Source of the DNA: an uncultured Hormoscilla sp.
GTDB taxonomy: Bacteria; Cyanobacteriota; Cyanobacteriia; Cyanobacteriales; Desertifilaceae
Length of the DNA stretch: 64,000 nucleotides
Direction of reading: 5' to 3'
Assembly: GCA_963921275.4 (NCBI GenBank)
Contig: OZ001293.3
Coordinates: 3,840,001-3,904,000, forward strand
This document shows, one piece after another, positions 35,718-60,874 of the stretch. The notes beneath the pieces were generated by a model that worked only from the letters and a program-made list of their open reading frames with translations, was not told the DNA's origin and did not search any database. Made by a program: the position numbers and the translations under genes. Each line of letters opens with the position of its first letter. Positions within the stretch are counted from its first letter, which is position 1.

Positions 35718-38700
35718 ATGAGCGACCTACAAAAACGTTTAGAAAAACTTTCTCCAGCTCAACGGGAACTGGTACTCAAAAAGCTGCAAGCACAAAAGCA
35801 AAACTTGAAGCCCCAAGCCAAAGTACCGGCGCGAGCGCCTGTTTCCAGAGACCAACCAATTCCGCTATCCTGGAATCAACAAAGACTGTGGTTTTTAGAG
35901 CAACTCGAAGGTAGCAGTTCTACATACAATATCCCGGCAGCAGTAGAGTTGGTGGGAGACCTCAACCTCACGGCCTTAGAGCAAGGGATCCAAGAAATTG
36001 TCCGACGCCATGAAGTCCTGCGGACAAATTTCACTTCTAAAGACGGACTCCCAGTGCAACAGATCGCCCCAGAGTTAAAGCTACACATAGCAGTTATCGA
36101 CCTCAAGTCAGATACCGAAGGGGATGAGGAAGTAAAGGAAAAAGCGATCGCCGAAGTGCAAAAGCCTTTCGATCTAGCAAAAGATCCCTTACTCCGGGTA
36201 ACTCTATTGCGGCGAGAGCCCTCCTCGCACGTCCTGTTGCTGACCATGCACCATATTATCTCTGATGGCTGGTCGATGGGGATATTAATTACAGAATTGT
36301 CACAGTTGTATCGGGCATTTTCGTTCCAAGCACCATCGCCCTTACCGGAACTACCATTTCAATATGCAGACTTTGCTGTATGGCAGCGGCAATGGTTGAG
36401 CGGAGAAACTTTAGAAACTCAACTAAATTACTGGAAAGAAACCCTCTCGGGGGCCCCGGAACTATTAGAATTACCGACAGACCTATCGCGTCCTCCCCTG
36501 CAGAAATTTCGCGGTAGCAGTATCAAATTTAACCTATCGGCAGAATTAACGAAAAAACTCCAAATTATAGCTGAAAAGTCCGAGGCCACCCTATTTATGA
36601 TTCTCTTCAGTGCTTTGGTGACTTTACTTTATCGCTATACCGCTCAAGAGGATATCTGTATCGGCACCCCGATCGCCAACCGGAACCGCGCCGAAACGGA
36701 ATCGCTAATTGGCTTTTTTATCAACACATTGGTATTGCGCGCGGACTTGACAGGAGATCCGACTTTTTCGGAGTTGATCGCGAGGGTGCGACAAAAGGCG
36801 ATCGATGCATACGATCGCCAGGACGTACCCTTCGAGCAAGTAGTAGAAGCTTTGCAACCCTCACGTTCTCTGAGCTACAGTCCCCTATTCCAGGTAATGT
36901 TTGCCTTGCAGAATGCACCGATGGGAGAATTAGAACTGCCCGGTCTGACTCTCAAACCCTTGGTCCAAGACAGCCTGACAGCCAAATTTGACCTGACAAT
37001 ATCCATGTGGGAAACAGACGCCGGACTGGCAGGATCCTGGGAATATAACAGTGACTTGTTCGATCGAGAGACGAGCGATCGCACCATCGGCCATTTCCAG
37101 ACATTGCTGGCCGGAATAGTAGCTAACCCCGACTGGCCTATAGGAGAATTACCTCTGCTGACTGCTGAGGAAAATCAACTATTCGAGTCGTGGAACAATA
37201 CTAAAACAAACTATCCGGCGGACAAATCTATTGGAGAACTATTTGAAAGGCAAGTCGAAAAGACCCCCGATGCCATAGCAGTAACCTACGGACGGGAACA
37301 ACTCACCTACAAACAGTTAAACTGCCGTGCTAACCAATTGGGACATTACCTGCAAGCTCGGGGTGTGGGCCCAGAAGTGCTAGTGGGTCTCTGCGTCGAT
37401 CGCTCCCTAGATGCGATCGTGGCCATGCTCGGCATTATCAAAGCTGGTGGCGCTTACGTGCCCATCGATCCAGACTATCCTCAAGACCGCATCGCCTATA
37501 TATTGTCAGATGCCCGAGTGCCAGTCTTGATTACTCAGTCTACGAGAAGAGCTAACTTGCCAGAACATCAGGCAGTTCTTGTCTGCTTAGATACAGACTG
37601 GCAAGAAATTAGCACCTGCAGCAGCGACAACATCAAAAGTGAAGTAAAACCCACTTCCTTAGCTTACCTGATCTATACATCTGGTTCTACAGGTAAGCCT
37701 AAAGGTGTAGCAGTGGTCCAGCAAGCCATCAGTCGTCTCGTGTTTGAGACCAACTACGTGCAGTTGCAGCCTACCGTGCCGGAAAAATCGGACTGCATGG
37801 CCCAAGCTTCTAATATCTCTTTTGATGCCGCCACTTTTGAAATTTGGGGAGCCTTGCTGCACGGAGCCAAACTCGTAGGCATTACTAAAGAAGTGCTGCT
37901 TTCACCTGAAGCATTGGCAAACCAGTTGCGCGAGCAAAAGATCGCGATTTTGTTTGTCACTACAGCCCTTTTCAATCAGTTGGTCAGTGTCGTGCCAGAT
38001 ATTTTCCAGCATCTGAGCACTCTCTTGTTCGGAGGTGAAGCGGTTGACCCATCCTGGGTAGCAACAGTCCTGGAAAAAGGACCGCCACGGCGACTGCTGC
38101 ACCTGTACGGACCAACGGAAAGCACGACATTCTCGACCTGGTATCTAGTAGAGTCAGTACCAGCAGGCGCAACCAACCTGCCCATTGGCAGTCCCATATC
38201 TAATACTACTATTTATGTCCTCGATCGCCATCTGCAACCCGTCCCCATTGGAGTCCCAGGAGAATTGTATATTGGCGGGGACGGTTTGGCTCGCGGTTAT
38301 CTGAACCGTCCGGAATTAACAGCCGCAAGATTTATCGATAACCCCTTTGGCAGTGGCCGTCTCTATAAAACAGGAGACTTGGTGCGTTACCTGCCAGATG
38401 GTAATATCGAATTTAAGGGTCGGATCGACAATCAAGTTAAGGTGCGCGGTTTCCGCATCGAACTGGGAGAAATTGAAGCCCTTTTGAGCAAGCACCCGCA
38501 AGTGCGAGAAGCAGTAGTCATAGTCCGGGAAGACCAACCGGGCAACAAGCGTCTGACAGGCTATGTACTCCCTTACTTAGAACCGCCAACTAGCAGTGCT
38601 TTGCGCGGCTTCCTGAAAGAAAGACTGCCCGAATATATGGTGCCAGCAGCTTTTGTGATTATGGAAGCCTTACCCTTAACCCCCAATGGCAAGGTGGAGC

Positions 38701-40463
38701 GCAAGGCGCTTCCAGCACCGGACGGACAAAGGGATGAAGACTCTGGTTTTGTCGCCCCCAGAACTCCTACAGAAGAAACATTGGCAGCTATCTGGAGCGA
38801 GATTTTGAGGGTTGAACGAGTAGGGGTTTGCGACAACTTCTTTGCCTTGGGTGGAGATTCGATCGTTAGCATTCAAATTATCGCTAGGGCCAATCAAGCG
38901 GGTTTGAAGTTGACACCCAAACAGCTATTCCAGTATCAGACGATCGCCGAATTGGCAGCAGTGGCCAGCACGACTGCCGCGAGACAAGCGACACAGGGTT
39001 TGGTGACGGGTTCGGCCCCCCTGACTCCCATTCAACATTGGTTTTTCCAGCAGGATTTACCCGCACCTCATCACTTCAATCAATCAGTCCTGTTGTCGGT
39101 GCCTCCAGACTTGCAGCCGCAGCTTTTAGAACAGGCTGTTCAAAAAATCTTAAGCCATCACGATGCCCTGCGATCGCGATTTATCGCCTCTGACACCGGT
39201 TGGCAGCAAGTTTATGCTACCCCAGACGAACAGATACCTTTCCAAGTCGCGGATCTGTCCGCTATTCCCCTCGCAGAACAGTCAGGACAGATGGAGGCGA
39301 TCGCGAATGAAATTCAAGCGAGTTTGCACCTGTCATCGGGACCGATAATGCGAGTGGTGCTGTTTCAGTTGGGGAGCGATCGGCCTGGTAGAATGCTAAT
39401 AGTCATCCATCACTTAGCAGTTGATGGCGTGTCCTGGCGCATTCTGCTAGAAGACTTGTCAACCGCTTACCAGCAGGAGGCCCTTCCGCCCAAAACTACC
39501 TCTTTCCAAGATTGGGCTAACCTGTTGACTGAATACGCGCGAACCGTTCCGGAAAAATCGGAAACAATCTCCAAAGAGTTAAACTACTGGCTAACCCAGT
39601 CGAGCACCAATATTGATTCGATCCCGGTGGACTATCCCGAGGGCAAGCAGGCCAACAGTTTTGGCTCCAGTCGCACGGTATCGGTATCATTAACGGAGGC
39701 AGAAACTCGGATCTTGCTGCAAGAAGTACCCAAGGCTTATAATACTCAGATTAATGACGTGCTGCTGACGGCATTAGTACTCAGCTTTGCCAAATGTACT
39801 GGCAGTAAATCATTGTTGGTGGACTTAGAAGGCCACGGCAGGGAAGAATTATTTGCCGATAGCGCCAGCGTAGACTTATCCCGGACTGTGGGTTGGTTTA
39901 CAACTTGTTTTCCGGTATCCTTGCAACTGGAGTCCGTTGACGATCTCTCTGATGCACTTAAATCGATCAAAGAGCAGCTGCGGAGCATACCTTCTAAAGG
40001 AATTGGTTATGGCCTCCTGCGCTATCTCAGTTCCGATGCGGCCACCCGCCAGACACTGGCAGATCAAACCCCATCTGAAATTAGTTTTAACTATTTAGGT
40101 CAATTTGCCGCTTCTAATGGGTTGCGATCGGGTACGATGGCATGGGGTATAGTGAGGGAAGCAACCGGCGAAAATCACAGTCCATTAGGTATTCGCGCTC
40201 ATCTACTGGATGTTAACGGATTAGTAGTTGCCGGACGGCTGCAAATGGATTATATTTACAGTGAAAACGTTCATCAACGAACAACTGTCGAACGCCTGGC
40301 TAAAACCTTTATAGAGACCTTAAAGTCCCTGAGCGACCACTGCACAGCACCGGAGGTGGGAGGCGATACCGCTTCAGACTTCTCGGCAGCAAGGTTAAAT
40401 CAACAACAGCTAGACAGTTTCCTGGCCAAAATCAAGAAACCCAAATCTGAGAAGAAAAAATAA
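35718..40463 (+). CDS. NRPS module 4: C(LCL-like)-A(Ile-like)-T-E
   Basis: HHIISDGWS, manual code DAFFLGLTFK, T motif GGDSI, E domain HHLAVDGVSW and EGHGRE. Confidence 0.93.
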   Translation: MSDLQKRLEKLSPAQRELVLKKLQAQKQNLKPQAKVPARAPVSRDQPIPLSWNQQRLWFLEQLEGSSSTYNIPAAVELVGDLNLTALEQGIQEIVRRHEVLRTNFTSKDGLPVQQIAPELKLHIAVIDLKSDTEGDEEVKEKAIAEVQKPFDLAKDPLLRVTLLRREPSSHVLLLTMHHIISDGWSMGILITELSQLYRAFSFQAPSPLPELPFQYADFAVWQRQWLSGETLETQLNYWKETLSGAPELLELPTDLSRPPLQKFRGSSIKFNLSAELTKKLQIIAEKSEATLFMILFSALVTLLYRYTAQEDICIGTPIANRNRAETESLIGFFINTLVLRADLTGDPTFSELIARVRQKAIDAYDRQDVPFEQVVEALQPSRSLSYSPLFQVMFALQNAPMGELELPGLTLKPLVQDSLTAKFDLTISMWETDAGLAGSWEYNSDLFDRETSDRTIGHFQTLLAGIVANPDWPIGELPLLTAEENQLFESWNNTKTNYPADKSIGELFERQVEKTPDAIAVTYGREQLTYKQLNCRANQLGHYLQARGVGPEVLVGLCVDRSLDAIVAMLGIIKAGGAYVPIDPDYPQDRIAYILSDARVPVLITQSTRRANLPEHQAVLVCLDTDWQEISTCSSDNIKSEVKPTSLAYLIYTSGSTGKPKGVAVVQQAISRLVFETNYVQLQPTVPEKSDCMAQASNISFDAATFEIWGALLHGAKLVGITKEVLLSPEALANQLREQKIAILFVTTALFNQLVSVVPDIFQHLSTLLFGGEAVDPSWVATVLEKGPPRRLLHLYGPTESTTFSTWYLVESVPAGATNLPIGSPISNTTIYVLDRHLQPVPIGVPGELYIGGDGLARGYLNRPELTAARFIDNPFGSGRLYKTGDLVRYLPDGNIEFKGRIDNQVKVRGFRIELGEIEALLSKHPQVREAVVIVREDQPGNKRLTGYVLPYLEPPTSSALRGFLKERLPEYMVPAAFVIMEALPLTPNGKVERKALPAPDGQRDEDSGFVAPRTPTEETLAAIWSEILRVERVGVCDNFFALGGDSIVSIQIIARANQAGLKLTPKQLFQYQTIAELAAVASTTAARQATQGLVTGSAPLTPIQHWFFQQDLPAPHHFNQSVLLSVPPDLQPQLLEQAVQKILSHHDALRSRFIASDTGWQQVYATPDEQIPFQVADLSAIPLAEQSGQMEAIANEIQASLHLSSGPIMRVVLFQLGSDRPGRMLIVIHHLAVDGVSWRILLEDLSTAYQQEALPPKTTSFQDWANLLTEYARTVPEKSETISKELNYWLTQSSTNIDSIPVDYPEGKQANSFGSSRTVSVSLTEAETRILLQEVPKAYNTQINDVLLTALVLSFAKCTGSKSLLVDLEGHGREELFADSASVDLSRTVGWFTTCFPVSLQLESVDDLSDALKSIKEQLRSIPSKGIGYGLLRYLSSDAATRQTLADQTPSEISFNYLGQFAASNGLRSGTMAWGIVREATGENHSPLGIRAHLLDVNGLVVAGRLQMDYIYSENVHQRTTVERLAKTFIETLKSLSDHCTAPEVGGDTASDFSAARLNQQQLDSFLAKIKKPKSEKKK

Positions 40464-42463
40464 CAGACAGGGACTTGACAACGAGCTGAGAGATGGCTAT
40501 CATATAGAAGTAGCTTGTGAATGAAGGGCGGCTGAACGGCTGGCTAAGACATGAGACCTTAAAGTACCCGATAGACCACTGCGCAGCACCGGAGGTGGGA
40601 GGCGATACCGCTTCAGACTTCTCGGCAGCAAGGTTAAATCAACAACAGCTAGACAGTTTCCTGGCCAAAATCAAGAAACCCAAATCTGAGAAGAAAAAAT
40701 GACAGACAGGGACTTGACAACGAGCTGAGAGATGGCTATCGTAGAGAAGTAGTTTGTGAATGAAGGGCGGCTGAACGGCTGGCTAAGACATGAGACCTTA
40801 AAGTACCCGATAGACCACTGCGCAGCACCGGAGGTGGGAGGCGATACCGCTTCAGACTTCTCGGCAGCAAGGTTAAATCAACAACAGCTAGACAGTTTCC
40901 TGGCCAAAATCAAGAAACCCAAATCTGAGAAGAAAAAATAACAGACAGGGACTTGACAACGAGCTGAGAGATGGCTATCATATAGAAGTAGCTTGTGAAT
41001 GAAGGGCGGCTGAACGGCTGGCTAAGACATGAGACCTTAAAGTACCCGATAGACCACTGCGCAGCACCGGAGGTGGGAGGCGATACCGCTTCAGACTTCT
41101 CGGCAGCAAGGTTAAATCAACAACAGCTAGACAGTTTCCTGGCCAAAATCAAGAAACCCAAATCTGAGAAGAAAAAATGACAGACAGGGACTTGACAACG
41201 AGCTGAGAGATGGCTATCATATAGAAGTAGCTTGTGAATGAAGGGCGGCTGAACGGCTGGCTAAGACATGAGACCTTAAAGTACCCGATAGACCACTGCG
41301 CAGCACCGGAGGTGGGAGGCGATACCGCTTCAGACTTCTCGGCAGCAAGGTTAAATCAACAACAGCTAGACAGTTTCCTGGCCAAAATCAAGAAACCCAA
41401 ATCTGAGAAGAAAAAATGACAGACAGGGACTTGACAACGAGCTGAGAGATGGCTATCATATAGAAGTAGCTTGTGAATGAAGGGCGGCTGAACGGCTGGC
41501 TAAGACATGAGACCTTAAAGTACCCGATAGACCACTGCGCAGCACCGGAGGTGGGAGGCGATACCGCTTCAGACTTCTCGGCAGCAAGGTTAAATCAACA
41601 ACAGCTAGACAGTTTCCTGGCCAAAATCAAGAAACCCAAATCTGAGAAGAAAAAATGACAGACAGGGACTTGACAACGAGCTGAGAGATGGCTATCATAT
41701 AGAAGTAGCTTGTGAATGAAGGGCGGCTGAACGGCTGGCTAAGACATGAGACCTTAAAGTACCCGATAGACCACTGCGCAGCACCGGAGGTGGGAGGCGA
41801 TACCGCTTCAGACTTCTCGGCAGCAAGGTTAAATCAACAACAGCTAGACAGTTTCCTGGCCAAAATCAAGAAACCCAAATCTGAGAAGAAAAAATGACAG
41901 ACAGGGACTTGACAACGAGCTGAGAGATGGCTATCATATAGAAGTAGCTTGTGAATGAAGGGCGGCTGAACGGCTGGCTAAGACATGAGACCTTAAAGTA
42001 CCCGATAGACCACTGCGCAGCACCGGAGGTGGGAGGCGATACCGCTTCAGACTTCTCGGCAGCAAGGTTAAATCAACAACAGCTAGACAGTTTCCTGGCC
42101 AAAATCAAGAAACCCAAATCTGAGAAGAAAAAATGACAGACAGGGACTTGACAACGAGCTGAGAGATGGCTATCATATAGAAGTAGCTTGTGAATGAAGG
42201 GCGGCTGAACGGCTGGCTAAGACATGAGACCTTAAAGTACCCGATAGACCACTGCGCAGCACCGGAGGTGGGAGGCGATACCGCTTCAGACTTCTCGGCA
42301 GCAAGGTTAAATCAACAACAGCTAGACAGTTTCCTGGCCAAAATCAAGAAACCCAAATCTGAGAAGAAAAAATAACAGACAGGGACTTGACAACGAGCTG
42401 AGAGATGGCTATCATATAGAAGTAGCTTGTGAATGAACGGCGGCTGAACGGCTGGCTAAGACA
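40313..42463 (+). repeat. 239-bp tandem array, 9 units: NRPS module 4 3' end plus a downstream promoter
   Basis: Eight identical 61-aa ORFs at 239-bp spacing. TTGACA starts at 40475, 40714, 40953, 41192, 41431, 41670, 41909, 42148 and 42387. Units differ by a few SNPs. Confidence 0.97.
40475..40503 (+). promoter_or_regulatory. Sigma70-type promoter present in every array unit (first copy given)
   Basis: TTGACA-acgagctgagagatggc (17 nt)-TATCAT. Unit 2 has TATCGT. Confidence 0.65.
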
Positions 42464-42819
42464 TTCACCAGAGATATTAAAGTCCTCGATCGCTCAGAAA
42501 TGCGGTGACTGTGTCCATTGACAGGAAATGCACCTCATTTTTGCAAAAACACACTTGTTTGAAGGCTGGAACCCTTATTATATTCTTACCTGAGTTGCAG
42601 AAACCCGGTTTCTTATCTGTATGATTAGACAACTACTTTTGACCACACCCTCTTGATAATGACCTTAGAGGTTGCTATCATAGAGAAGTAAAGGCTGAGT
42701 AGGTGAGATGGGAGAAGTGATAACGGTGGGTGGCATAATAACCAGCCATGAATGATGGACAGAGAGACCCATAGAGTAACAGAATAAAGTTGAGAGAATT
42801 GAAAAAGGAGAGTACAATA

Positions 42820-45036
42820 ATGGACAATAAGTGGGAGCAATCGAATAAAGCATACAATATCGGTGACATAGTTGTATTTGAAGGTCGAAGATATAAGTGT
42901 ATCCAGGCTCATACAACTAACGGCGATTATAACTGGAATCCAGCAACTGCTCAAAGTTTGTGGGCACAGTATACGAGGCAATCAACTTCACAGGGGCAAT
43001 TAACTTCACAAGACATAGAAGAATTCAAGAAGAAATTCAACGAACGGAGGCAGTTCTATAAGATCCCAGGAGCAGCATTAGGGATTGTCCAAAATGGTCA
43101 AGCGATCGTGCAAGAAGGATTTGGTAAGCGAAATCTAGAATCTTCTTCAGCTGATGTGACAAAAGAAACGATTTTCGCCATAGGTTCAATGAGCAAGTCA
43201 TTGACAGCTTTGATGATCGGCACCCAAGTAGAGGCTGGTTTATATAATTGGGATACTCAAGTTAGTCAAATTAGTCCAGTGTACAAATTTAATCAATACA
43301 AGGAAATAACGGTAGCTGATTTATTGGGCATGCATTCCGGTCTAGAGGGGGCATTGAATTTTCAATATATCGATCTCGGGAAGAATCTGTTTGGTTATAA
43401 TGCCAGATACTGGAACGAACAAACGCCAATTTATCTGATAGAAAATCTCTCCTATTTGCCAGCTCCAAAAGGCAAAAAAGGGGAATATTTATACAATAAC
43501 GAATTATTTGCAAGCGGGGGTTATCTGACGCCGTTGAAAAACAAAAAGCCCACATCCCAATTATTGCAAGAATATAGGAAATTAATGCAGGATAAAGTAT
43601 TTAAGCCTATTGGTATGACAAGCACCAACATTACGGGGATGTTATCAAGTGTTAGCGATAACTATGCAATCAGCTACGGTCTGGACATGAGTGGGGGGGA
43701 AGCCAAAATTTTTAACAAAGGTGGGATCAGTATTAGCGATATTAATGGCGTGGCCCCAGCCGGTCAGGTGGTTACCAACGTTGAAGATATGAACCGTTAC
43801 CTGATTACCCTTTTGAAAGGCGGATGCAACCCCGAGGGCTCTCAAGTGATTAAGTCTGAAACTTTGCAGAAACTTTGGGATATACAAGGCAAGACCCTTA
43901 AAGACAATAGTAATAAGGAGGGGATTACGGGGAAGACAACCTACGGAATGGGTTGGTGGGTAGAAAAAATTTCCCGGAAATCTAATCCGAACGAAATCGT
44001 CACAGTCAAGCATCATGGCGGTTATTTACCATCTTGGTCCTGCATGCAGATGCTAGTTCCAGAGCAAAATGCTGGCATGGTGATTCTCACCAATAGTTGT
44101 TTTGGTCGGGAGTTTACGATGGAAATGAATCAAGAGCTGCTTAACTTGCTCTATAACTCAGATTTCAACAAAGACATTTTTATTGACAATCAAAAATATC
44201 ATGAAGGATTTCTGACAAAGTTAAAGGAGGCAATAGCCCAAAAAGTGTCAATAGCGGTACAAGACGAAAACAAAGTAGCAGAGGAAAAGAAAAAAGCTGA
44301 GAAGATTATAGGTAATTATGAAGGGGGGTGGAATTTAAATTATGATTCGGTAGATAAATGCTTGGTGCTGTATAAACAAGGCTGGATTGCTCGCTTGGCT
44401 CCTTCTAAAAATCCTGGCGATAAATATGTCTATTACATGGTAGCGTCGAACGATCACAGGGGAATGCACGTCACAAACAAAGAAGATATTTATGGAGCCG
44501 GTAAAATTTGGTTTACAAAAATTAAGGATATGAATAATATCGATCTGATGATGTATGGGGCAAAAGTTGGAGCAATCAAGAAATTGCCAGAGACGTCAAC
44601 AAAGAAGACAATATCTGAAATATTAGAATCGGAATATGACAAAGAGCGGTTTCAGCAGCTCAAAAATATATATTATCAAGAATGCGCAAAAAAACAATTG
44701 AGGGATATTATTGAGTTATTTTCAGATGACAAGAAATTACTGAATTTAAAACAGGAAAAAAAAGATGCGGTGAAAAAGAAGTTGGAGGAGGCGAAAAAAG
44801 AATTAGAGTCGGCCATTGGTAATATCACAGGGTCTTCACCAACAGAAGCAGCAGCAGCAGAGCAGCAGACGAACGAAAAAATCTCGATGATTATTTTAGA
44901 CGACGGTGACACCGAAATCACACCGGTGGAAGAAGTAACAATAATCTTAGATGATATTCCTGATAACAGCGAAAGTGACACCGAAATATCACTGGAAACA
45001 ACAATTGAGTTAATGAGAGAGATGCAAAGGGATTAA
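42820..45036 (+). CDS. CBM5/12 (chitin-binding type 3-like) domain fused to a beta-lactamase-fold serine hydrolase with an acidic C-terminal tail
   Basis: N-terminus W...AYNIGDIVVFEGRRYKCIQAHT...WNPATAQSLW. Motifs SMSK (SxxK), YNN and HHGG. RBS AAGGAG precedes ATG 42820. Confidence 0.87.
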   Translation: MDNKWEQSNKAYNIGDIVVFEGRRYKCIQAHTTNGDYNWNPATAQSLWAQYTRQSTSQGQLTSQDIEEFKKKFNERRQFYKIPGAALGIVQNGQAIVQEGFGKRNLESSSADVTKETIFAIGSMSKSLTALMIGTQVEAGLYNWDTQVSQISPVYKFNQYKEITVADLLGMHSGLEGALNFQYIDLGKNLFGYNARYWNEQTPIYLIENLSYLPAPKGKKGEYLYNNELFASGGYLTPLKNKKPTSQLLQEYRKLMQDKVFKPIGMTSTNITGMLSSVSDNYAISYGLDMSGGEAKIFNKGGISISDINGVAPAGQVVTNVEDMNRYLITLLKGGCNPEGSQVIKSETLQKLWDIQGKTLKDNSNKEGITGKTTYGMGWWVEKISRKSNPNEIVTVKHHGGYLPSWSCMQMLVPEQNAGMVILTNSCFGREFTMEMNQELLNLLYNSDFNKDIFIDNQKYHEGFLTKLKEAIAQKVSIAVQDENKVAEEKKKAEKIIGNYEGGWNLNYDSVDKCLVLYKQGWIARLAPSKNPGDKYVYYMVASNDHRGMHVTNKEDIYGAGKIWFTKIKDMNNIDLMMYGAKVGAIKKLPETSTKKTISEILESEYDKERFQQLKNIYYQECAKKQLRDIIELFSDDKKLLNLKQEKKDAVKKKLEEAKKELESAIGNITGSSPTEAAAAEQQTNEKISMIILDDGDTEITPVEEVTIILDDIPDNSESDTEISLETTIELMREMQRD

Positions 45037-45133
45037 AATTGGAAAAAGAGATCTTGTAGGACTGCCCAGATCCCATGTCAGTTGTCAATTGCTTTGTATA
45101 GACATTAATTATGGTCTCCTGCGCTATCTTAGT

Positions 45134-45247
45134 TAAGTAATAGGACAAAATTAATTGCATTAGCTTGCGGGAGCAGTTCCTGCGTTGCAAGGGTTTCCTG
45201 CGCTCCGGCACCCAGGCGATGTGTAATTAATTTTGTCTAACTACTTA
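45134..45247. mobile_element. MITE-like inverted-repeat element
   Basis: TAAGTAATAGGACAAAATTAATTGCA...TGTAATTAATTTTGTCTAACTACTTA imperfect TIRs. Confidence 0.65.
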
Positions 45248-45302
45248 GCAGAAACTGAAGTCATGGCTCTTTGGAATGGTTTGTCTTTACTTTTTTAGTA
45301 TA

Positions 45303-46321
45303 ACCTAAGTTGCGACCTATTAAAAAAAATATGAATTACCCACTTAGACTTTACAGATATTTGGGATATTTCGTAGCTTTTGATACAAAATTATATTTTT
45401 TTTGTGCTAGACGGCGGGTTGGCTGTTTATAGGTTATAATGTACTAAAATAATAGTTAATTGCTGGGGGATGTAGATGATGGAAGATATGATTACAACAA
45501 TTTTTGTTCTTTGTGACGAGCTACTAAAAGCGTTAAATATAAAAGAAGATCCACAAGTAAAAATGAACAATGCCGAAGTGATGACAGTCGGATTAGTTGC
45601 TGCATATTTTTTCGGAGGACACCACGATCGCTCTTGTCAATTTATGGTCGAACACAAGTATATAAAAAATCTGTTAAGTAAAAGTAGGTTCAATCGTCGA
45701 TTACACAATATTGACGAACCAATTTGGATGTTTTTCTTCCAAGTTATAGCGTTATAGCTCAAACATTTAAAGAGCTCAATCCGGGTCAAGAATATATTCT
45801 TGATAGTTTCCGGTGCCAGTATGTGATAATATTAGGATTGATAGATGCCAAATTTATAACAAGGAAGAATATCGAGGGTATATTGCCAGTAAAAAACGTT
45901 ATTTTTATGGATTAAGAGTTCATATGTTGGTAAACAAAAATGGAAAGCCAATAGAATTTTATCTAGATCCTGGTAGTTATAATGATTTTAAAGTTTTACA
46001 ATCTTTTGGCTTTGACTTACCATCAAATTCAATAGTTTATGGAGATAAAGCTTATAATGATTATCAATTAGAGGATTTACTAAAAGAGTCGTCAAGTATA
46101 ATGTTAAAACCTTTGCGAAAAAAGAACTCAAAAAGAAAAGAATATTCTTGTTTTGAATATATACAAAAAGTAACAAGAAAACAAGTTGAAACCTGTTTTA
46201 GTCGAATCACCAATTTGTTTCCCAAGTCAATTCATGCTGTTACATCTAAGGGATTAGAGTTGAAAATAATTCTCTTTATCATAGCTTTTTGTATCCAATT
46301 TTTATAGGTCGCAACTTGAGT
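45303..46321 (+). mobile_element. IS982-family insertion sequence, transposase frameshifted into three pieces
   Basis: TIRs ACCTAAGTTGCGACCTAT / ACTCAAGTTGCGACCTAT, 7-bp TSD TAGTATA. Motifs LSKSRFNRRL, RGYIASKKRYFYG, YGDKAY, RKQVETCFS. An 8-bp duplication (gttatagc) causes one frameshift. Confidence 0.93.
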
Positions 46322-46385
46322 TAGTATAGAACCCGAAGAGCTTTTCTGTATGACTGGTGCTAAAAGCTACTTTCCAAACATCCTC

Positions 46386-46823
46386 TCAGAAGAAAAAATA
46401 CCAGACCCCGGACTTGACAACGAGGAATGGAGATGGCTATAGTAGAGAAGAAGCTTGTGAATGTTGGGCAGAGCAACGGCTGGCTAAGGCATTTACCTCC
46501 AGACATTAAAGTCCCCGATCGCTGCGCAGCACCGGAAGTGGGAGGATATCCTGCTTCAGACTTCTCCGCAGCAAGGTGAAATCAACAACAGCTAGACAGT
46601 TTCCGGCAAAAATCAAGAAAGCCAAATCTGAGAAGAAAAAATAACAGACAGGGACTTGACAACGAGCTGAGAGATGGCTATCGTAGAGAAGTAGCTTGTG
46701 AATGAAGGGCGGCTGAAGGGCTGGCTAAGACATTCACCAGAGACCGAGACGTCCCCGATCGCTGCACAGCACCGGAAGTGGGAGGCGATACCGCTTCAGA
46801 CTTCTCCGCAGCAAGGTGAAATC
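46386..46823 (+). repeat. Two diverged copies of the 239-bp promoter/NRPS-tail unit
   Basis: TTGACA at 46414 (N18-TATAGT) and 46656 (N17-TATCGT), plus gcttcagacttctc...gcaagg blocks. A remnant gcagctagacagttt resumes at 47051. Confidence 0.88.
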
Positions 46824-46855
46824 TGACCAAAATTAAATAAATCAGAGGGGGAAAA

Positions 46856-47044
46856 ATGACAGAAGCAAATGGGAATTCACAACAAGCAGCAGAAAAGGAG
46901 GCTAAAGATGTTAGGAATAGGCGTCCTGCCGATCCCAGAATAATTTCGGTAAAGCGCTCAAATATTCCTAAAATCAGCGAACGGAAGATTAGAGTTTCAA
47001 AGGAAACAATGCGTTACTTAATTCGGAGCCTGCAATTGGATTAA
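46856..47044 (+). CDS. 62-aa protein whose C-terminus matches the C-terminus of the adjacent hydrolase
   Basis: RBS GAGGGGG. PKISERKIRVSKETMRYLIRSLQLD compared with PKASERQIKVSKETTRYLLRNLQLD. Confidence 0.65.
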   Translation: MTEANGNSQQAAEKEAKDVRNRRPADPRIISVKRSNIPKISERKIRVSKETMRYLIRSLQLD

Positions 47045-47095
47045 ACCATAGCAGCTAGACAGTTTTCAGGGAAAAACAAGAGAGAGGTCACAATC

Positions 47096-48892
47096 ATGAC
47101 AGCAGCAAAAAAAACTTTATCATCACAACAAATCGAAGATTTCAAGAAGAAATTCAACGAACGGAGGCAGTTCTATCAGATCCCAGGAGCAGCATTAGGG
47201 ATTGTGCAAGATGGTCAGGTTACTGTGTCTGAAGGGTTTGGGGTGCGAGACTTGCAGACACAGACTCCCATGACAGCAAAAACGATTTTCAACATAGGTT
47301 CAATGAGTAAGTCATTGACAGCTTTGATGATCGGCACCCAAGTGGATGAGGGTTTATATGCCTGGGATACTCCAGTGAGTGAAATTAGCTCGCAGTACCG
47401 CTTTCCCTCTGTACTCGCTTACGAACCAACGGTGACAGATTTAATGGGAATGGCTTCTGGTATAGATGGTGCGCTCAACCCTTATGCCATAATTCCCGAT
47501 CCCAACGATCCTAGTACTGCGATTATAGGTGCTAATGGAACACTTTGGAATGACCAAACGGCAATCTATACTATCAAAAACATCCAATTTTTGCCATGCG
47601 ATCCAGCCGATAAAGGGAAACATATCTACAACAATGAGTTGTATGCAAGCGCTAGTTATCTGACGCCGTTGAAAGAAAACAGGCCAACATCCCAATTGCT
47701 GCAAGCTTATAAGCAATTAATGCACGAGAAAGTATTTGATACCATTGGCATGGCAGATACCGCAATGTCTGGTACTTTGTCAAGTGTTAGCGACGACTAT
47801 GCCATCAGCTACGGCCTAGACATGAGTGACGGACAAGCAAAAACTTTTGATAAAGGTGCAGTCAGTATTAACTATATCAATGGTGTGGGCCCAGCCGGTC
47901 AGGTGGTTTCCAACGTTGAAGATATGAACCGTTACCTGATCACCATTTTGAATAACGGAGTCAACCCCGATGGCGTCGCAGTGATTAATGCTGACACTCT
48001 ACAGCAACTTTGGAATATAGAAGGCAAGGAAACTAAAACAAATCGTTATGATGCGGGGATTACGGGGACGATAACCTACGGAATGGGTTGGTGGGTAGAA
48101 GACATTCCCCGGAAATCTAATCCGGACGAAATAGTCACAGTCCGGCATCATGGCGGTTTCTTACCATCTTGGGCCTGCATGCAGATGCTAGTTCCAGAGC
48201 AAAATGTGGGCATGGTGATTCTCACCAATGGTTCTTTTGGTCGGGAGTTTACGATGGAAATGAATCAAGAGTTGCTTAACTTGCTCTATGACTCAGATCT
48301 AGACAACTTCATTGACAATGAAGCCCTTTATACTAAGTTTGTGTCGGACTTAGAAACGACAATGCCAGAGAAAGTGTCTTCATATACGGTCGTTTACGAA
48401 GACGTAGAGATGCTCCTCGGTAATTATGAAGGGCTATGGACTTTAGAGGTGGATGGAGATAATCGCTTGGTCTTGTTTAAGAACGGCTGGATTTATCACT
48501 TGTATCCTTCTCGAGAAGATCCCTTATTTATCTATTACATAGGAGCATCGAACAATCACAGGGGCATGAGGGTAAGAGAATCAAGCGATCCCGACATAGA
48601 TCCGCTTGAAGGAGCAAAAATTTGGTTTGTTGAAGACGAGCAAGAGGTCATTAACATGATTGGACCTCAAATTGGAGGGGTCAAGAAATTGCCTAATCTA
48701 TTAGAATCCGATGAGTTAAATAGATTAATCCTCAGTATCTTAGGTGATAAATCCTTTCCCCCCGCTCCCCCCGCCCCCGCTCCCCCCGCTCCCCCCGCTC
48801 CCCGTATGAGAGCTCCTAAAGCCAGCGAACGTCAGATCAAAGTCTCGAAGGAAACGACACGTTACTTACTGCGGAACCTGCAATTGGATTAA
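47096..48892 (+). CDS. Beta-lactamase-fold serine hydrolase, paralog 2, with Pro-rich linker and C-terminal tag
   Basis: IGSMSKS, IYNNE, HHGGF; PPAPPAPAPPAPPAP linker before the terminal motif. Confidence 0.9.
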   Translation: MTAAKKTLSSQQIEDFKKKFNERRQFYQIPGAALGIVQDGQVTVSEGFGVRDLQTQTPMTAKTIFNIGSMSKSLTALMIGTQVDEGLYAWDTPVSEISSQYRFPSVLAYEPTVTDLMGMASGIDGALNPYAIIPDPNDPSTAIIGANGTLWNDQTAIYTIKNIQFLPCDPADKGKHIYNNELYASASYLTPLKENRPTSQLLQAYKQLMHEKVFDTIGMADTAMSGTLSSVSDDYAISYGLDMSDGQAKTFDKGAVSINYINGVGPAGQVVSNVEDMNRYLITILNNGVNPDGVAVINADTLQQLWNIEGKETKTNRYDAGITGTITYGMGWWVEDIPRKSNPDEIVTVRHHGGFLPSWACMQMLVPEQNVGMVILTNGSFGREFTMEMNQELLNLLYDSDLDNFIDNEALYTKFVSDLETTMPEKVSSYTVVYEDVEMLLGNYEGLWTLEVDGDNRLVLFKNGWIYHLYPSREDPLFIYYIGASNNHRGMRVRESSDPDIDPLEGAKIWFVEDEQEVINMIGPQIGGVKKLPNLLESDELNRLILSILGDKSFPPAPPAPAPPAPPAPRMRAPKASERQIKVSKETTRYLLRNLQLD

Positions 48893-49010: not shown

Positions 49011-50195
49011 ATGATACCATTAGAAGATCAGAAGATGCTTTTCATTATACCGACATTGACGATTGGTTTAGTTGTTGTTTCAGCAATAGCGCTGCTATAT
49101 CTTTCTTACCCTTACTTATATATCTCACTATTTTGGTTACTCTATTTGATTTTCTTAACTTTAATCAGTAACAAGTCTTGGAACAAAGCCATATGGTTTA
49201 ATTTAAGTTTTATTATTTTTATATTTGGCTTAATTGAGATTTATTCTACTTTGTCTCTGAACGGCTGGATAGAAGGCTTGAAATTTGAAGGTAGCTATAC
49301 ACGAGATTATTTTACTGCTGACGATATCCTTGGTTATGCACCCAATAAAGCAATAGCCGTAAATTCAAAACTATCTATAAGAGGAAAGCCAATTTATGAT
49401 GTTACTTATACAATAAACGATCGAGGATTGCGGGTTTCTCCACCAGGCGATCGGGATCGATGTATATTATTTTTTGGCGACTCTTTCACCTTTGGGCAGG
49501 GGCTAGAGGACAATGAGACTTTGCCTTATCTTGTCGGTGAATTGTCAAAAGCCCAAGTATATAATTTTGGTTTTCACGGCTATGGGCCACATCAAATGCT
49601 TGCCGCTATAGAACAAGGGATGTTAGACAAAATTGTCGATTGTCAGCCAAGTTTAATTATCTATGAAGCATTTATAGGTGATATTTACAGATCGGCTGGT
49701 CGTGCCCCTTGGGATAGACATGGCCCCAAATATGCGATCGCGGCAAATGGAGGTGTAAAATATCAGGGTCACTTTGACGACAACTTCACTAAGAGTAAAG
49801 CAATAGCATTAATCAAGGAACAAGTAGAAAAGTCTTATTTTTACAAAAAGTTTTTTAAGTATAAAGCTTTAATTGATGAAGAGGATATAAAATTATTTAT
49901 CGAAATTATTAATGCTTCCTATAATCAATTAAGAGAAAAATACCCCAATGCTGATTTTCAGGTATTGTTTTGGGATAATTATCCAGAAAACCAGTTATAT
50001 CAACAAGTGATAGCAGGTTTAAGAGCAAAAAGTTTTCAGCTAGATTTAATTAGTCAAATACTACCAAACTTTTGGGATAATCAATCAAGATACCAGATCC
50101 CTGACGAACAACACCCTAATCCCCTGGCCAATCAATATATTGCAGAATACGTGGTCTCCGAAATTATGAATATGTCAGTAGTCAGTAGTCAGTAG
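49011..50195 (+). CDS. Membrane-anchored SGNH/GDSL hydrolase-family protein
   Basis: Three hydrophobic N-terminal segments, FFGDSFTFG, NFGFHGYG, DEQHPN. Confidence 0.85.
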   Translation: MIPLEDQKMLFIIPTLTIGLVVVSAIALLYLSYPYLYISLFWLLYLIFLTLISNKSWNKAIWFNLSFIIFIFGLIEIYSTLSLNGWIEGLKFEGSYTRDYFTADDILGYAPNKAIAVNSKLSIRGKPIYDVTYTINDRGLRVSPPGDRDRCILFFGDSFTFGQGLEDNETLPYLVGELSKAQVYNFGFHGYGPHQMLAAIEQGMLDKIVDCQPSLIIYEAFIGDIYRSAGRAPWDRHGPKYAIAANGGVKYQGHFDDNFTKSKAIALIKEQVEKSYFYKKFFKYKALIDEEDIKLFIEIINASYNQLREKYPNADFQVLFWDNYPENQLYQQVIAGLRAKSFQLDLISQILPNFWDNQSRYQIPDEQHPNPLANQYIAEYVVSEIMNMSVVSSQ

Positions 50196-50445
50196 TCAGT
50201 TGTGGGTAGTCATTTGTGGGTAGTCAGTTGTGGGTAAGCAGGTGGGTGCAAATAAACTGGCCTCTGTTAAGAAATGTAAAATCTCTGAATCTTTTTCTGG
50301 AAGAGGCTTTCAGCCAAGTAAACAAATATTTACTGCCGTTGAGTTTACTTATGCACACCTACTTAGTCAATTGTGGGTAGTCATTTGTGGGTAGTCAGTT
50401 GTAGGTAGTCAGTTGTGGGTAGTCAGTTGTGGGTAGTCAGTTGTG
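50175..50445. repeat. STRR-like short tandem repeats interrupted by a MITE-like element (50235-50365)
   Basis: (GTAGTCA)n and (GTAGTCAGTTGTGG)n. The insert is bounded by TAAGCAGGTGGGTGCA...TGCACACCTACTTA. Confidence 0.8.
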
Positions 50446-50896
50446 AATTTTGAATTTTCAGCGCCATCCCCTTGAGAGGCAATTTTGTCTACGAGCAAAA
50501 ATGCTTATTTACAACCCCTATTCCGCACGACAAGTTGTAACATGCTAAGGAATATGTAATTTATCCTACATTCAGCACGATAAAATGTAAGTGACAAAGT
50601 TGACATGCTTCCATTTAAAGATAATAACCCACATATTACACTACAATTGTCACATAAATAATACGTGATTGTGGGTGGTTTGGCATTCGTAAGACACCAA
50701 GTAATAAGTAAATTATGGGTGGTTTGGCAATTTTAACGTATAAATATTTATACGAAGGTCAGGTTTAGCGTTCGCGGACAGTACCAAGTAGTTGTAATCA
50801 TCGCATTTGAAATATTATAATACGAAGGCGGATAATAATGGTTAATATTTTTTTAAGATCGTGAAGGCTACTTGAGTGATATAATAAGAAAGGAAA

Positions 50897-51016: not shown

Positions 51017-54000
51017 ATGAATGATATTGAAGACATTTACGAATTAAGCCCTATGCAGCAGGGGATTCTGTTCCACAGTCTTTACGAACAGAGTGATGGC
51101 ATGTATTTCCATATGCTAGCTTGGACTTTGGAAGGCCCGTTGAATGTAGATGCTTTCAAGCAAGCGTGGCATCAAGTTGTGGCTAGACACGCGGTGTTGC
51201 GGACTTCTTTCCACTGGCAAGAGTTGGAAAAACCCCTACAGGTGGTTCATTCTACGATCGAGTTGCCTTGGCTAAATATATCCTGGCAGGGAAAGACTGA
51301 GTTAGAAGAGAAGCGATCTGCCTTTATAAAGGCAGATCGCAGCCAAGGTTTTGAACTGGATGAAGCCCCCTTGATGCGCTGTGCTTTGATAGAGTTAGGC
51401 TCCGATCGCTACGAATTTGTCTGGAGTCTGCATCATCTGTTGCTTGATGGTTGGAGTATGGCGATCGTCCTGAAGGAAGTGTTTGAGTTATATGAGGCGA
51501 TCGCAGTGGGGAAAGATTTATATTTACCGCCCCCGCTCCCCTTCCGAGAGTATATCACTTGGTTGCAAGAGCAAGACTTGTCCCAGGCGAAAGCATACTG
51601 GCAACAAACCCTCCAGGGCTTTAAGATGCCTACTGTCATGCCTGGCATTCAGGGGCCAAAAAATCATCAAACCCATTACCAGGAGCAACATTTTAATTTA
51701 GCCGCAAGTACTACCAAGGCGTTACAGTCTTTAGCTCGCGCAAATGGTTTGACATTAAGTACAATTTTACAGGGTGCCTGGGCCCTACTGCTAAGTTGCT
51801 ACAGTGGGGAGTCAGATGTTGTCTTTGGAGTTACGGTTTCCGGTCGCCCGCCTTCTTTATCGAGAGTAGAATCGATGGTGGGGGTGTCGATCAATACATT
51901 ACCAATGCGCGTGCAACTGCCTGATTTGTCGTTTCCGACAGCAGGGGAACTATGGCCTTGGTTGAGAAAGTTGCAGGCCCAGCAGGTAGAACAGCAACAA
52001 TACTCCTTTATGCCTCTGGTGGAAATTCAAACTCTGAGTGAAGTACCCCAAGGTATGTTTGAGAGTATTGTGATTTTTCAGAACTATCCGATAGATCCTG
52101 TCAGCACCAGGCAGGGAGACTTGCAAATAGGTCAAATTAAAGGGACTGGACATACTAATTATCCCCTGACAGTCATGGCCAGTCCAGGTGCGGAATTGTC
52201 AGTACGGATAAAGTATGATGGCACTCGCTTTCACCTCAAGACCATAAGCTCGATCGCCAGAGACTTACAATTGGTATTAGAGGCGATCGCGACTAATCGA
52301 GAGCCCCAAATTGCTTCATTAATCACCAAGTTGCATAAATTGGGCAAACCGCTTAAACTGCAACAGCTGGAAGTGGCGTTGATGTCTGCTCCTGAAGTAG
52401 AAGATTGTTACATATTAGAACGAGAAAACACCATAGTTGCTTATGTAGTATTATCATCTGCATTGACGGAGCCAGAAAAACTCAATAATCATTTGCAAGC
52501 TCAACTCTATACTTACCAAGCACCAGATGTATATGTAAAAATATCGGCTTTACCCCTGACAGATACAGGAGAAATTGACGAAGTGGCCCTGGGGCGAATA
52601 CCGGTCTTGGATGAGGAGTTGGCACAACGCTGGGAAAAACAACTGCAAGAACTGCCAGAAATTGAGCGCGTAGCGGTGGTCGTTCGACCTGAAACTAAGA
52701 GTTTACCACCCTTACATTTATCTGACTTACTACCCCAAGTAGGGTGGGCACCGCCCACCAACGGCACCGCCCACCAACAGGCGGTTTCCGGTGATGACAT
52801 CACGCCAGTCCCAGAAAGCCAAGTGGCGATCGCCAAGGCCCGATCGCGGGAAATGGCCATCAGTCACGGAGGACCGCTAGAATATCGACAAGATTGGCCG
52901 CGTACCCTTGCAGAACTATTGCCAGTGGCGGCCCTCAAAAGCAGTCAGAAGATCCTATACATACAGCGGGATGGTACGGAGTTATGGCAATCCTATGGGG
53001 ATTTACTTCAAAAGGCCCAAAGCATAAATGGGGGTTTGAAAGCACTAGGTCTCCAGCCCCAAGATAAGGTAATACTGCAACTTAAACATCCCCAAGATTT
53101 TATTCCGGCATTTTGGGGCTGCATTCTGGGAGGGTTTGTACCGGTACCCCTGGGTGTAGCCCCTACTTATAGCCAAGTCAATAATGCGGTGCAGAAATTG
53201 CAGAATGCCTGGCAGATGCTAGAAAAGCCGTTCGTCTTGGCAAGCGCAGAACTGGTGCAGGCGATCGCTTCTTTGTCAGAACTTCTGGGTTTAGAGAATT
53301 TGCAAGTAGAAAGCTGCGATCGCCTGGGAGAGTACGACCCAGAACCGAATTATCATCTGAGTCAGCCAGAGGATTTAGCAATATTACTTCTAACGTCTGG
53401 AAGTACGGGCATGCCAAAGGGAGTTATGCTGAGTCATCGGAATATCTTAAGTAGCGTTGCGGCCACCTCGGAAGTCAGCCAATTGACCCGAGAAGATATA
53501 TCACTCAATTGGCTTCCCCTAGACCATCCCGGGCCTCTGATTCGCTGCTGTATCCGCTGCGTATTCCTCGCTTGCCAACAAATACACGCACCCACAGATC
53601 TGGTTTTACAAGATCCGCTAATCTGGTTTGATTGGTTGGAACGCTATGGGGTGACGAGTACTTGGAGTCCTAATTTTGCCTTTACCCTCGTTAACGATCA
53701 AGCCGCTGAAATTAAACAGCGGAGGTGGAATTTGTCTGCTGTCAGGTCTTTGTTGAATACTGCCGAACCCATTGTGCCCCAAACTGCACAAAGATTTTGG
53801 GAATTATTTGCCGGGCATCAGTTAGCTGCCCGGGCCATGCATTCTTCTTGGGGCATGGCAGAAACTGCTTCCGGGGTGACTTTTTCCGATCAGTTTTTGC
53901 AGGTCAACCCGACCCAGACTTCTTTTGCCGAATTAGGACTTCCCATCCCCGGGGTTTCTTTGCGCATCGTTAATGGGGAAAATGAAGTGATAGAATGCGG

Positions 54001-57000: not shown

Positions 57001-57229
57001 CCTGTTCCAGGTATTCCAGGCCAACATCCAAGCGCGGCTTCACTATCGCCCCCAACCATATGCGGGTCGGATAGTCCTGTTTCTTGCTAGCGAACAAACG
57101 GTGGAGGACGATCGAGGTTGGGACAGTCTGGCAATAGGAGGGATAGAGAAACACTTGATTAATGGAGGACATTACCAGCTGATCGAAAGTCGGATTCTGG
57201 GAGAGAAACTCAAGGTTTATCTAGCCTAA
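51017..57229 (+). CDS. Terminal depsipeptide module: C(DCL-like)-pseudo-Asub-A(alpha-keto acid)-KR-T-TE
   Basis: HHLLLDGWS. A-subdomain remnant before the A core (LPLTDTGEID). LTSGSTGMPKG, and WLPLDHPG lacking the amino-binding Asp. KR motifs TGGLGGIG and YAAAN. T motif GGHSL. TE motif GWSLG. Confidence 0.9.
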   Translation: MNDIEDIYELSPMQQGILFHSLYEQSDGMYFHMLAWTLEGPLNVDAFKQAWHQVVARHAVLRTSFHWQELEKPLQVVHSTIELPWLNISWQGKTELEEKRSAFIKADRSQGFELDEAPLMRCALIELGSDRYEFVWSLHHLLLDGWSMAIVLKEVFELYEAIAVGKDLYLPPPLPFREYITWLQEQDLSQAKAYWQQTLQGFKMPTVMPGIQGPKNHQTHYQEQHFNLAASTTKALQSLARANGLTLSTILQGAWALLLSCYSGESDVVFGVTVSGRPPSLSRVESMVGVSINTLPMRVQLPDLSFPTAGELWPWLRKLQAQQVEQQQYSFMPLVEIQTLSEVPQGMFESIVIFQNYPIDPVSTRQGDLQIGQIKGTGHTNYPLTVMASPGAELSVRIKYDGTRFHLKTISSIARDLQLVLEAIATNREPQIASLITKLHKLGKPLKLQQLEVALMSAPEVEDCYILERENTIVAYVVLSSALTEPEKLNNHLQAQLYTYQAPDVYVKISALPLTDTGEIDEVALGRIPVLDEELAQRWEKQLQELPEIERVAVVVRPETKSLPPLHLSDLLPQVGWAPPTNGTAHQQAVSGDDITPVPESQVAIAKARSREMAISHGGPLEYRQDWPRTLAELLPVAALKSSQKILYIQRDGTELWQSYGDLLQKAQSINGGLKALGLQPQDKVILQLKHPQDFIPAFWGCILGGFVPVPLGVAPTYSQVNNAVQKLQNAWQMLEKPFVLASAELVQAIASLSELLGLENLQVESCDRLGEYDPEPNYHLSQPEDLAILLLTSGSTGMPKGVMLSHRNILSSVAATSEVSQLTREDISLNWLPLDHPGPLIRCCIRCVFLACQQIHAPTDLVLQDPLIWFDWLERYGVTSTWSPNFAFTLVNDQAAEIKQRRWNLSAVRSLLNTAEPIVPQTAQRFWELFAGHQLAARAMHSSWGMAETASGVTFSDQFLQVNPTQTSFAELGLPIPGVSLRIVNGENEVIECGAIGYLQVKGETVTRGYYHNEELNREVFTTDGWFATGDIGFIQEGRLTITGREKDVIIINGVNYYSHEIEAAIEKLPEIELSYTAAVSVEGDKLAVFFSTPCKDSQLRNKLAEIQQQVVSQIGIKPDYLLPVQKTVIPKTSIGKIQRSQLSQAFAAGEFKEILKQVDILLENANTLPDWFYRQVWQAKQVRRLQELSAGLTLIFVDSLGLGDYIGERLLEEKQEIIKVSVGSEFVQVSADRYRLDPQKAEHYQQLLETIAAAKIYLILHLWNYTEDRGKISSLAELEKAQNTGVYSLLFLVQALAKVQGDRDEVQLLWISSHSQSVEATEEIAWEKSSVMGLLKTVPQEMPMWNCRHVDLAVDLAVEGVEVNGDNILAEMQDPTGEPEVAYRHGQRLVIRLERVKWSGKLGQAIPFQKGGSYLITGGLGGIGVEIAKYLLEHYQARLLLVGRTPLQTEKLAAIEQLQQLGGTVIYETVDICDRPRMSAIISDWGELDGIVHLAGVAHDSLLVEEIHSGFATALQGKVYGTWVLHQLIKDRPDCLFINFSSVNGFFGGTTVGAYAAANSFLDAFSDYQRNHSQLHSYCFAWSMWDETGMSRGYQMKELSHARGYYPIGKQQGIKSFLAGMSWGPTRLAIGLDGSKANIQRYLPACDGLEKLTAYFTGTVPASLPQPPSDRYGTPTPWELTPVPEMPLTDSGEIDLHKLAGKITSLKTGDRVGPRNEIELEIAQIWQEVLAIDHIGIYDNFFQLGGHSLRVLQVIYRLQNFFAVDLPLQSLFNTPTIASLAAAIARQHPQQANSSLVPIQPKGKRSPFFCVHPVGGNVLCYASLARHLGEEQPFYGLQSLGLNGEEEPLTSLEDMATHYIQAIQTMQPSGPYYIGGWSLGGAIAFEMAQQLSASGEEIGLLALLDSYTPQVIARVNDQRKGLLSQMLNVALDDATLASYYFAQDLGSLLGKELQISVEQLQQLDLDAQLTYILEQAKIEKVIPPELGLRQIRRLFQVFQANIQARLHYRPQPYAGRIVLFLASEQTVEDDRGWDSLAIGGIEKHLINGGHYQLIESRILGEKLKVYLA

Positions 57230-58942: not shown

Positions 58943-59028
58943 TAATCACTCATGATGGGCATCTCTTGACTTGATGTCTATCTTCGAGTGACAGCATGAA
59001 GTTGAGGGATTTGCATAAGGAGAGTAGA

Positions 59029-60573: not shown

Positions 60574-60601
60574 TTTGGTAATTAGACATAAGCCTTCTGA
60601 T

Positions 60602-60640
60602 GACCTCAGACCTCAGCCATTGACGCTGATGTCTGAGGTC
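60602..60640 (+). terminator. Hairpin after hydrolase 4 (repeated at 63085-63123)
   Basis: GACCTCAGACCTCAGC...GCTGATGTCTGAGGTC. Confidence 0.55.
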
Positions 60641-60832: not shown

Positions 60833-60874
60833 ATTTTGTGACCTATAAATTTGGCCAGCTCTGTAAGTTCAAAT

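Follow-up and report, generated by a model that had tools for sequence, protein, structure and literature searches.

Promoters repeated in tandem are known from Mycobacterium tuberculosis, where such repeats were described at lpdA, dop and cysG and a 12.5-fold expression was cited for four lpdA copies; the part of that source dealing with these loci calls direct proof of promoter-repeat expression dials scarce, with lpdA among the only cases (PMC12817950). Serial sigma-70 promoters were also assembled synthetically as core-tac clusters, and transcription increased stepwise with copy number (PMC3293061). Here, a stretch of 64,000 nucleotides from an uncultured Hormoscilla sp. was analysed (positions 3,840,001 to 3,904,000 of contig OZ001293.3; hereafter the window). 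It lies on a 6.88-Mb chromosome, G000:C1, with 4738 HIP1 sites. Within a hybrid polyketide synthase-nonribosomal peptide synthetase (PKS-NRPS) cluster recognised by Pfam, an array of nine 239-bp units was found on the forward strand (40314-42464), each unit holding one sigma-70-type promoter site. From the sequence we infer promoter activity, a dosage effect and selection, and the interpretation favoured by a modest margin over its negation is that the array is a variable-number promoter tandem repeat that would set the dosage of a serine hydrolase gene, hydrolase 1, likely its nearest target. As in the mycobacterial repeats, tandem promoter copies precede a co-oriented gene, their number differs between isolates or samples, and an expression dial is proposed (PMC12817950, in the section concerned). 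The mycobacterial units span 54-58 bp (cysG, lpdA) in that section, compared with 239 bp here, two thirds of which come from a coding 3' end (PMC12817950). Unlike those repeats, the present array has 9 to perhaps 15-20 copies, belongs to a cyanobacterial biosynthetic cluster, and ends with its last -10 box 405 nt upstream of the hydrolase 1 ATG. The core-tac clusters differ in being engineered, with short units and a gain that ends at five copies, as far as the consulted part of that source describes them (PMC3293061). No promoter tandem repeat in a bacterial NRPS cluster was found described in the open-access literature searched.

The array, its make-up, its age and the variation of its junction depth between sequencing runs were read directly from the data. 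Tandem Repeats Finder gave a period of 239, 9.0 copies and 99% matches for 40314-42464. This agreed with the pattern search and the unit alignment, and thereby bore out the preliminary description of the DNA, which had reported a nine-fold 239-bp array with TTGACA-N17-TATC(A/G)T in every unit. Positions 1-150 of the unit represent the 3' end of the NRPS module 4 gene, positions of about 135-157 a relic ribosome site and hydrolase gene start, and positions 162-190 the promoter block. The remaining stretch of approximately 30 nt consists of diverged module 4 sequence and carries a 5-nt deletion where the units join. The first promoter site, identified by pattern match and class enrichment, was TTGACA-N17-TATCAT at 40475-40503 (forward strand), and the other eight start at 40714, 40953, 41192, 41431, 41670, 41909, 42148 and 42387 on the same strand. 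TATCAT is present in eight units and TATCGT in unit 2 (40714). A remnant of a tenth unit with an older junction type follows at 42465-42494 (forward strand). Units 4-8 were identical over their full length. Relative to the array consensus, unit 1 differed at six sites, five of them among its leading 31 nt, unit 2 at three, unit 3 at one and unit 9 at two. The divergence of unit 1 was thus concentrated at the edge (5 of 31 sites versus 0 of 117 in the next stretch, p 0.0003), which fits long concerted evolution. Comparable edge divergence is shown by ribosomal DNA spacer repeats (PMC3036644). In the portion of that source concerned, spacer subrepeats with spacer promoters likewise exhibit unequal crossing over, copy-number variation and terminal repeats that escape homogenisation; being eukaryotic and served by RNA polymerase I, they provide an analogy only (PMC3036644).

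Orthologous clusters were present in L022, a metagenome-assembled genome (MAG) of Cyanobacteriota, and in G044, G510, G632, G651 and G659. Within one genus, 4 of 79 genomes carried the cluster; within one family, 1 of 301 did. The hydrolase gene of G044 and G651 starts 9 nt after the module 4 stop. Judged from this alignment, the A-run and ATG in each array unit are a relic of the hydrolase start, and the TAA/TGA variation between units is this relic ATG switching on and off. In L022 there is only one unit; it matches at 81% over 205 nt, and its promoter-like block is weaker. Because of this single unit and the diverged module 4 sequence with its 5-nt deletion that ends each array unit, the duplication is old, is common to run X5 and has been homogenised since. 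Relics of the module 4 tail, four in G510 and one in G659, lie mostly upstream of duplicated hydrolases; the tail was thus duplicated more than once across this cluster family. In the ancestral state suggested by the orthologues, the module 4 stop would have adjoined the ribosome site of the hydrolase gene. A promoter-like block would then have arisen between the two, a piece of about 245 bp comprising the module 4 tail and the block would have been tandem-duplicated long ago, and the units would have been homogenised, expanded and contracted through unequal recombination. Two candidate sources of the block were considered. The block may be a coding relic, as hinted at by third-position changes in one frame; this frame had been chosen post hoc, and tblastn found no source in the genome. 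Derivation from the promoter preceding a toxin-antitoxin-like array (C1:208084) was rejected, with 17 of 32 flanking bases alike, a value within the tail of 1263 sites. At G000:C1:206400-208100 on the reverse strand, four tandem units of a promoter and a small gene (approximately 90 aa, antitoxin-like) precede a PIN-like gene.

Part of the locus was covered by 23 runs, four of them over at least half and none of them recorded as RNA. Depth was analysed for four of the 23 against the flank plus one unit, and the small-share runs X7-X23 were left out. The head-to-tail junction was present in all four runs examined. Relative to the single-copy flank, junction depth was 8.0-10.0 in X1, 14.3-19.7 in X3 and 1.0 in X5, which suggests about nine units in X1, 15-20 in X3 and two in X5, contig depth serving as a rough guide. 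X6, with only 10 of 30 bins covered, gives no ratio. The flank in X3 was identical to the window over 3344 nt, and X5 represented a strain diverged by a few percent. Copy number therefore differed between samples by an indirect, depth-based measure, contig depth as given by the read tool not being a copy number.

Motif enrichment was calculated on C1 with units 2-9 masked and with ten control spacers of 10-14 and 21-25 nt. The exact motif TTGACA-N17-TATCAT occurred 19 times versus a control mean of 2.1, and a spacer of 19, which was not a control, gave 10. Sites matching at least 11 of the 12 consensus positions outside long open reading frames (ORFs) numbered 139 versus 40.5 at control spacings. 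The excess of the motif class over control spacings was 71-89%, and no excess was found for the 8/12 class. Owing to this enrichment at 17-nt spacing, a site of the class of at least 11/12 is probably a true promoter. As sequence matches only, the array sites reach 11/12 with a 17-nt spacer and the L022 homologue 8/12. Of 3000 random 239-bp windows that were partly non-coding, 2.3% contained a site of at least 11/12, a figure that is post hoc, the array unit having been chosen for its promoter. Neither a terminator-like site nor an unusual fold was detected between the array and the co-oriented hydrolase 1. Each unit would fire a sigma-70 promoter and, with no terminator predicted in the units, additional copies would increase transcription of hydrolase 1 regardless of the NRPS operon upstream. 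Pressure towards more hydrolase, for product maturation or self-protection, seems to act on the cluster repeatedly.

Two further amplifications, an older second array and a 2483-bp triplication, also place promoters before serine hydrolase genes, as read from their sequences. The older array (46384-46823, forward strand) comprises one whole unit between two partial ones, with 81-91% identity to the unit of the main array. Its promoters are kept at 11/12 and 10/12, and its peptide frame is broken. Its junction depth versus single copy was 4.4-5.2 in X3 and 1.2 in X5. Older copies had been described as preceding hydrolase 2; they do, with the qualification that a 62-aa minigene lies directly downstream of them and hydrolase 2 after it. 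Between hydrolase 1 and the older units, an insertion sequence (IS) was found at 45301-46323 without assigned strand, with a DDE transposase in two pieces and frames and 25-nt terminal inverted repeats.

In the assembly, the 2483-bp segment is present in three near-identical copies with 0-2 differences (58699-64000 on the forward strand, continuing to 66149, i.e. G000:C1:3906149). Hydrolase 4 is tripled, and the promoter of the next gene, TTGACA-N17-TATAGT (60804-60832, 11/12), comes to lie upstream of copies 2 and 3. The copies are joined at a short shared word and leave two truncated 159-aa copies of a 397-aa gene of no assigned function. In promoter capture by tandem duplication, a duplication reportedly sets the promoter of a downstream gene ahead of another gene. 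The triplication resembles this, with the downstream gene's promoter ahead of hydrolase 4. The 239-bp array, unlike such capture, multiplies the promoter only and not the gene. The earlier proposal of a promoter battery driving the hydrolase genes and module 5 was thus strengthened in its first part by the variable copy number, the enriched motif class and the two additional hydrolase-directed amplifications. Its second part is doubtful, since the IS and 8.5 kb intervene between the array and module 5.

Several points weigh against a promoter repeat acting on hydrolase 1. This gene has a 10/12 site of its own; directly before it lies a diverged, TG-extended paralogue of the promoter block, TTGATA-N17-TATCAT (42653-42681, forward strand). 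The sole homologous block in L022 falls in the class without excess on C1; compared with the copy at 42653, its hexamers differ at 5 of 12 positions and its spacer at 3 of 26 (p 0.08). G044, G651 and G510 lack a block of this kind. High copy number also occurs without a promoter match (89 bp x 6.7), and synthetic tandem tac promoters gained nothing beyond five copies in the part of the source concerned (PMC3293061). No record states what type of run X1, X3 and X6 are, and if X3 were RNA, its excess would represent transcription. X1 is possibly the source sample and shares its study with X3.

The most serious competing explanation is a neutral repeat, in which the module 4 tail would be prone to duplication, the copy number would drift by recombination, and the promoter would be weak, unused or without fitness effect. 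It is possible, with roughly one chance in three by our estimate. C1 carries 100 near-perfect tandem duplications of at least 80 bp, and dead tail copies stand before duplicated hydrolases in G510 (four) and G659 (one) without a promoter block. L022 shows no conservation of the block as a consensus promoter. The promoterless 89-bp array of 6.7 copies is consistent with neutral expansion as well; it is non-coding, with a HIP1 site in each unit (G000:C1:5096091-5096684). Against neutrality, the 239-bp array has the highest copy number of all 100 duplications and is among the four that carry an 11/12 site. When the 55 mostly coding duplications were set aside, five of the 45 mostly non-coding ones reached at least 2.75 copies; the array was the highest of these and the sole one with an 11/12 site. 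Moreover, three amplifications lie within 26 kb, all with near-consensus promoters before hydrolase genes. In G659 (L056), the relic before the second hydrolase contains an 11/12 promoter-like site within the dead module 4 tail copy. This site may have been gained independently as a promoter or be due to chance, and with 1 of 17 orthologous starts versus approximately 0.3 expected it is anecdotal.

The array also contains eight GTG-started 61-aa ORFs, the first at 40517-40702 and the last at 42190-42375 (forward strand). They were confirmed as described, all identical, each in a chimeric frame that ends in the module 4 tail, and they are probably not translated. Module 4 (C-A-T-E; 35718-40463, forward strand; Pfam) has its last 150 nt in array unit 1 and ends in a basic tail of the communication-mediating (COM) donor type. 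Module 5 (C-A-KR-T-TE; 51017-57229, forward strand; Pfam) begins with an acidic N-terminus of the COM acceptor type. The charges were +6 for the tail and -4 for the N-terminus, compared with +4 to +7 and -4 to -5 in the orthologues. The tail carries the E-domain motif with TASDF in place of TPSDF. In the relevant parts of the literature, NRPS COM donors likewise follow an E domain and face an oppositely charged C-domain N-terminus (PMC9113145, PMC12402864). By these features of position and charge, the tail plausibly is a COM donor as part of module 4, so that the 61-aa ORF would include the docking helix. The docking pair of modules 2 and 3 has the opposite charge polarity.

The preliminary description had interpreted these ORFs as free COM donors: if all eight were translated, the 61-aa peptides would compete with module 4 for module 5 and direct flux to the hydrolases. 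This is very improbable. The extended form, in which the array would double as a docking-peptide dial proportional to copy number, uncoupling module 4 from module 5 and passing the D-ended intermediate to the hydrolases, is given an equally slight chance. For free peptides speak the open frames, which extend over all of the donor region that follows the TPSD-like motif, and the complementary charges of donor and acceptor. Excess of another class of docking peptide inhibits turnover in vitro, according to the part of the source that treats it (PMC9113145). A search of proteins of 33-107 residues retrieved one intact 68-aa tail ORF (P0048) on a 975-bp metagenome contig. The anti-Shine-Dalgarno (anti-SD) pairing, calculated with the 16S end of this genome, was -1.2 kcal/mol for the ORF, compared with -5 kcal/mol or stronger in 9 of 12 cluster genes; two of the 12 pair as weakly as the ORF. 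To our knowledge, lack of an SD sequence is not decisive in cyanobacteria. The GTG start is located 13 nt past the -10 box, a distance that fits neither leaderless translation nor a normal leader. The missing ribosome-binding site noted earlier was thereby upheld, and the suggested leaderless start was not. All three array-specific changes relative to four outgroups were non-synonymous, one of them Leu to Pro, and stops or frameshifts interrupted the donor frame in all seven older tail copies examined. The first 12 residues derive from non-coding and frame-shifted sequence, and the older array, seemingly expanded in X3, has a stop before the docking helix. Translation signals were thus lacking, and paralogues and orthologues gave no sign of selection to keep the frame, the one intact tail ORF aside. 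COM donors are described as synthetase parts, and free natural COM peptides are not mentioned, in the relevant parts of two sources (PMC9113145, PMC12402864); the array copies lack signs of translation. The constancy of the peptide despite single-nucleotide differences between units, which had been reported earlier, was observed and carries little weight, as 39% of single-base changes are silent and only 3-5 variant events occurred (p 0.02-0.17 depending on event counting). Judged by its sequence, the 61-aa frame is probably passive, a leftover that is intact only because the array is kept homogenised with the real module 4 tail.

An assembly artefact, in which the assembler would have multiplied one or two units, is very unlikely: other exact tandem runs occur in the assembly, some on small contigs, and no run contig covers the entire array (the reference being the flank plus one unit only), but the junction 40552->40314 was found in contigs of all four runs, the X1 junction depth of 579 versus a flank depth of 72.8 gives a ratio of 8.0, equal to the eight junctions of nine units and in line with the assembled number, unit alleles recur in the runs, and old, diverged sequence is situated at the junction itself. 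Among the small contigs of G000, C2-C7 lack HIP1 sites, tandem repeats make up most of C2, C4, C5 and C7, and the G+C content of C3 is 17.6%; these small contigs may be foreign to this organism. Other classes of repeat were rejected. An array of the clustered regularly interspaced short palindromic repeat (CRISPR) or cassette type was dismissed, as there are no variable spacers or cargo and units 4-8 are identical throughout. A dispersed mobile repeat, such as a miniature inverted-repeat transposable element (MITE) or an IS, does not agree with a unit confined to this cluster in the genome. For a structured RNA, Rfam gave no match at E 0.1 in 40000-47200, and the unit fold had a z-score of -1.13. 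The promoter part of the unit had no match listed among 40 relatives, and the exact promoter pattern had none in metagenome contigs.

The 62-aa minigene between the older array and hydrolase 2 (46856-47044, forward strand) shows strong anti-SD pairing. Its last 20 residues copy the C-terminal motif common to hydrolases 1 and 2. It was intact in the stretches fetched from three of seven genomes, namely the window, L022 (9911-10090) and G510 (L040, 12790-13035), those of G044 and G659 being cut by contig ends for this count. A search of the whole library with the minigene protein returned three proteins, itself included. The complex of the minigene peptide with hydrolase 2 lacking its own tail was modelled and scored 0.75 compared with 0.06 for the best control; 116 of 157 solved complexes reached the score mark, as did 2 of 215 mismatched pairs, although both numbers are only approximate here owing to the use of an own alignment. 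Model runs had at least 62% of their contacts in common, and the predicted local distance difference test (pLDDT) value of the partner was at least 51. The modelled interface includes hydrolase 2 residues 68-69, 178, 180 and 352-356. We take residues 68-69, 178/180 and 352-356 to be the SxxK serine, YxN and HGG motifs with active-site roles. The model supports binding of the peptide to hydrolase 2 in contact with active-site residues, and the modelled contact may simply mirror the enzyme's own tail folding back. Tentatively, the minigene could be a free copy of the hydrolase C-terminal tail that would bind the active-site cleft and there act in trans, either inhibiting the enzyme or serving as a decoy substrate. 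This role is better supported than the docking-peptide dial.

Hydrolase 1 (42820-45036, forward strand; Pfam) combines CBM5/12 with a serine hydrolase of the beta-lactamase family, and the pairing of its ATG with the anti-SD was -9.4 kcal/mol. Hydrolase 2 (47096-48892, forward strand) was assigned by Pfam and a structure model to the beta-lactamase-family fold. With a mean pLDDT of 85.7, the model matched Pab87, the DL-peptidase Lip3, ClbP and SurE at 13-20% identity. Lip3 cuts D-L bonds in lipopeptides in the part of the source that describes it (PMC12903863). The cluster hydrolases scored below every NCBIfam cut-off shown. Close homologues were named in Microcoleus, Tolypothrix and a Cyanobacteriota MAG, and no relative of hydrolase 2 was confirmed in metagenome contigs. 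By analogy with these enzymes, we infer a role of the hydrolases in maturation or self-protection. Hydrolase 3 (57407-58942 in the window) is split by a stop into frames of 192 aa and 314 aa and is whole in G510 (533 aa). The cluster family, represented by 7326-66000 in window numbering and by L022, G044, G510, G632, G651 and G659, varied widely in gene order and hydrolase number. Its features include an N-methylating module, a CmlA-type hydroxylase, two E domains and an A-KR-TE end. Among the stretches fetched from the family, a carbamoyltransferase was present in the window only. Tandem repeats of 14 bp and 7 bp occupy 50164-50457 of the window, between a GDSL-like gene and module 5. Neither the cluster nor its product was found described in the open-access literature searched.

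Taken as a variable-number promoter tandem repeat, the array would be distinguished by a large unit built from the end of an NRPS gene and by a copy number that differs from sample to sample, with two more amplifications directed at hydrolases close by. Short-read assemblies do not reveal it. A natural dosage series of 2, 9 and approximately 15 units is at hand. The variable array together with these two further amplifications suggests that the hydrolases limit this cluster family by their dose, and through the minigene a control of the cluster peptidases by a peptide may come to light.

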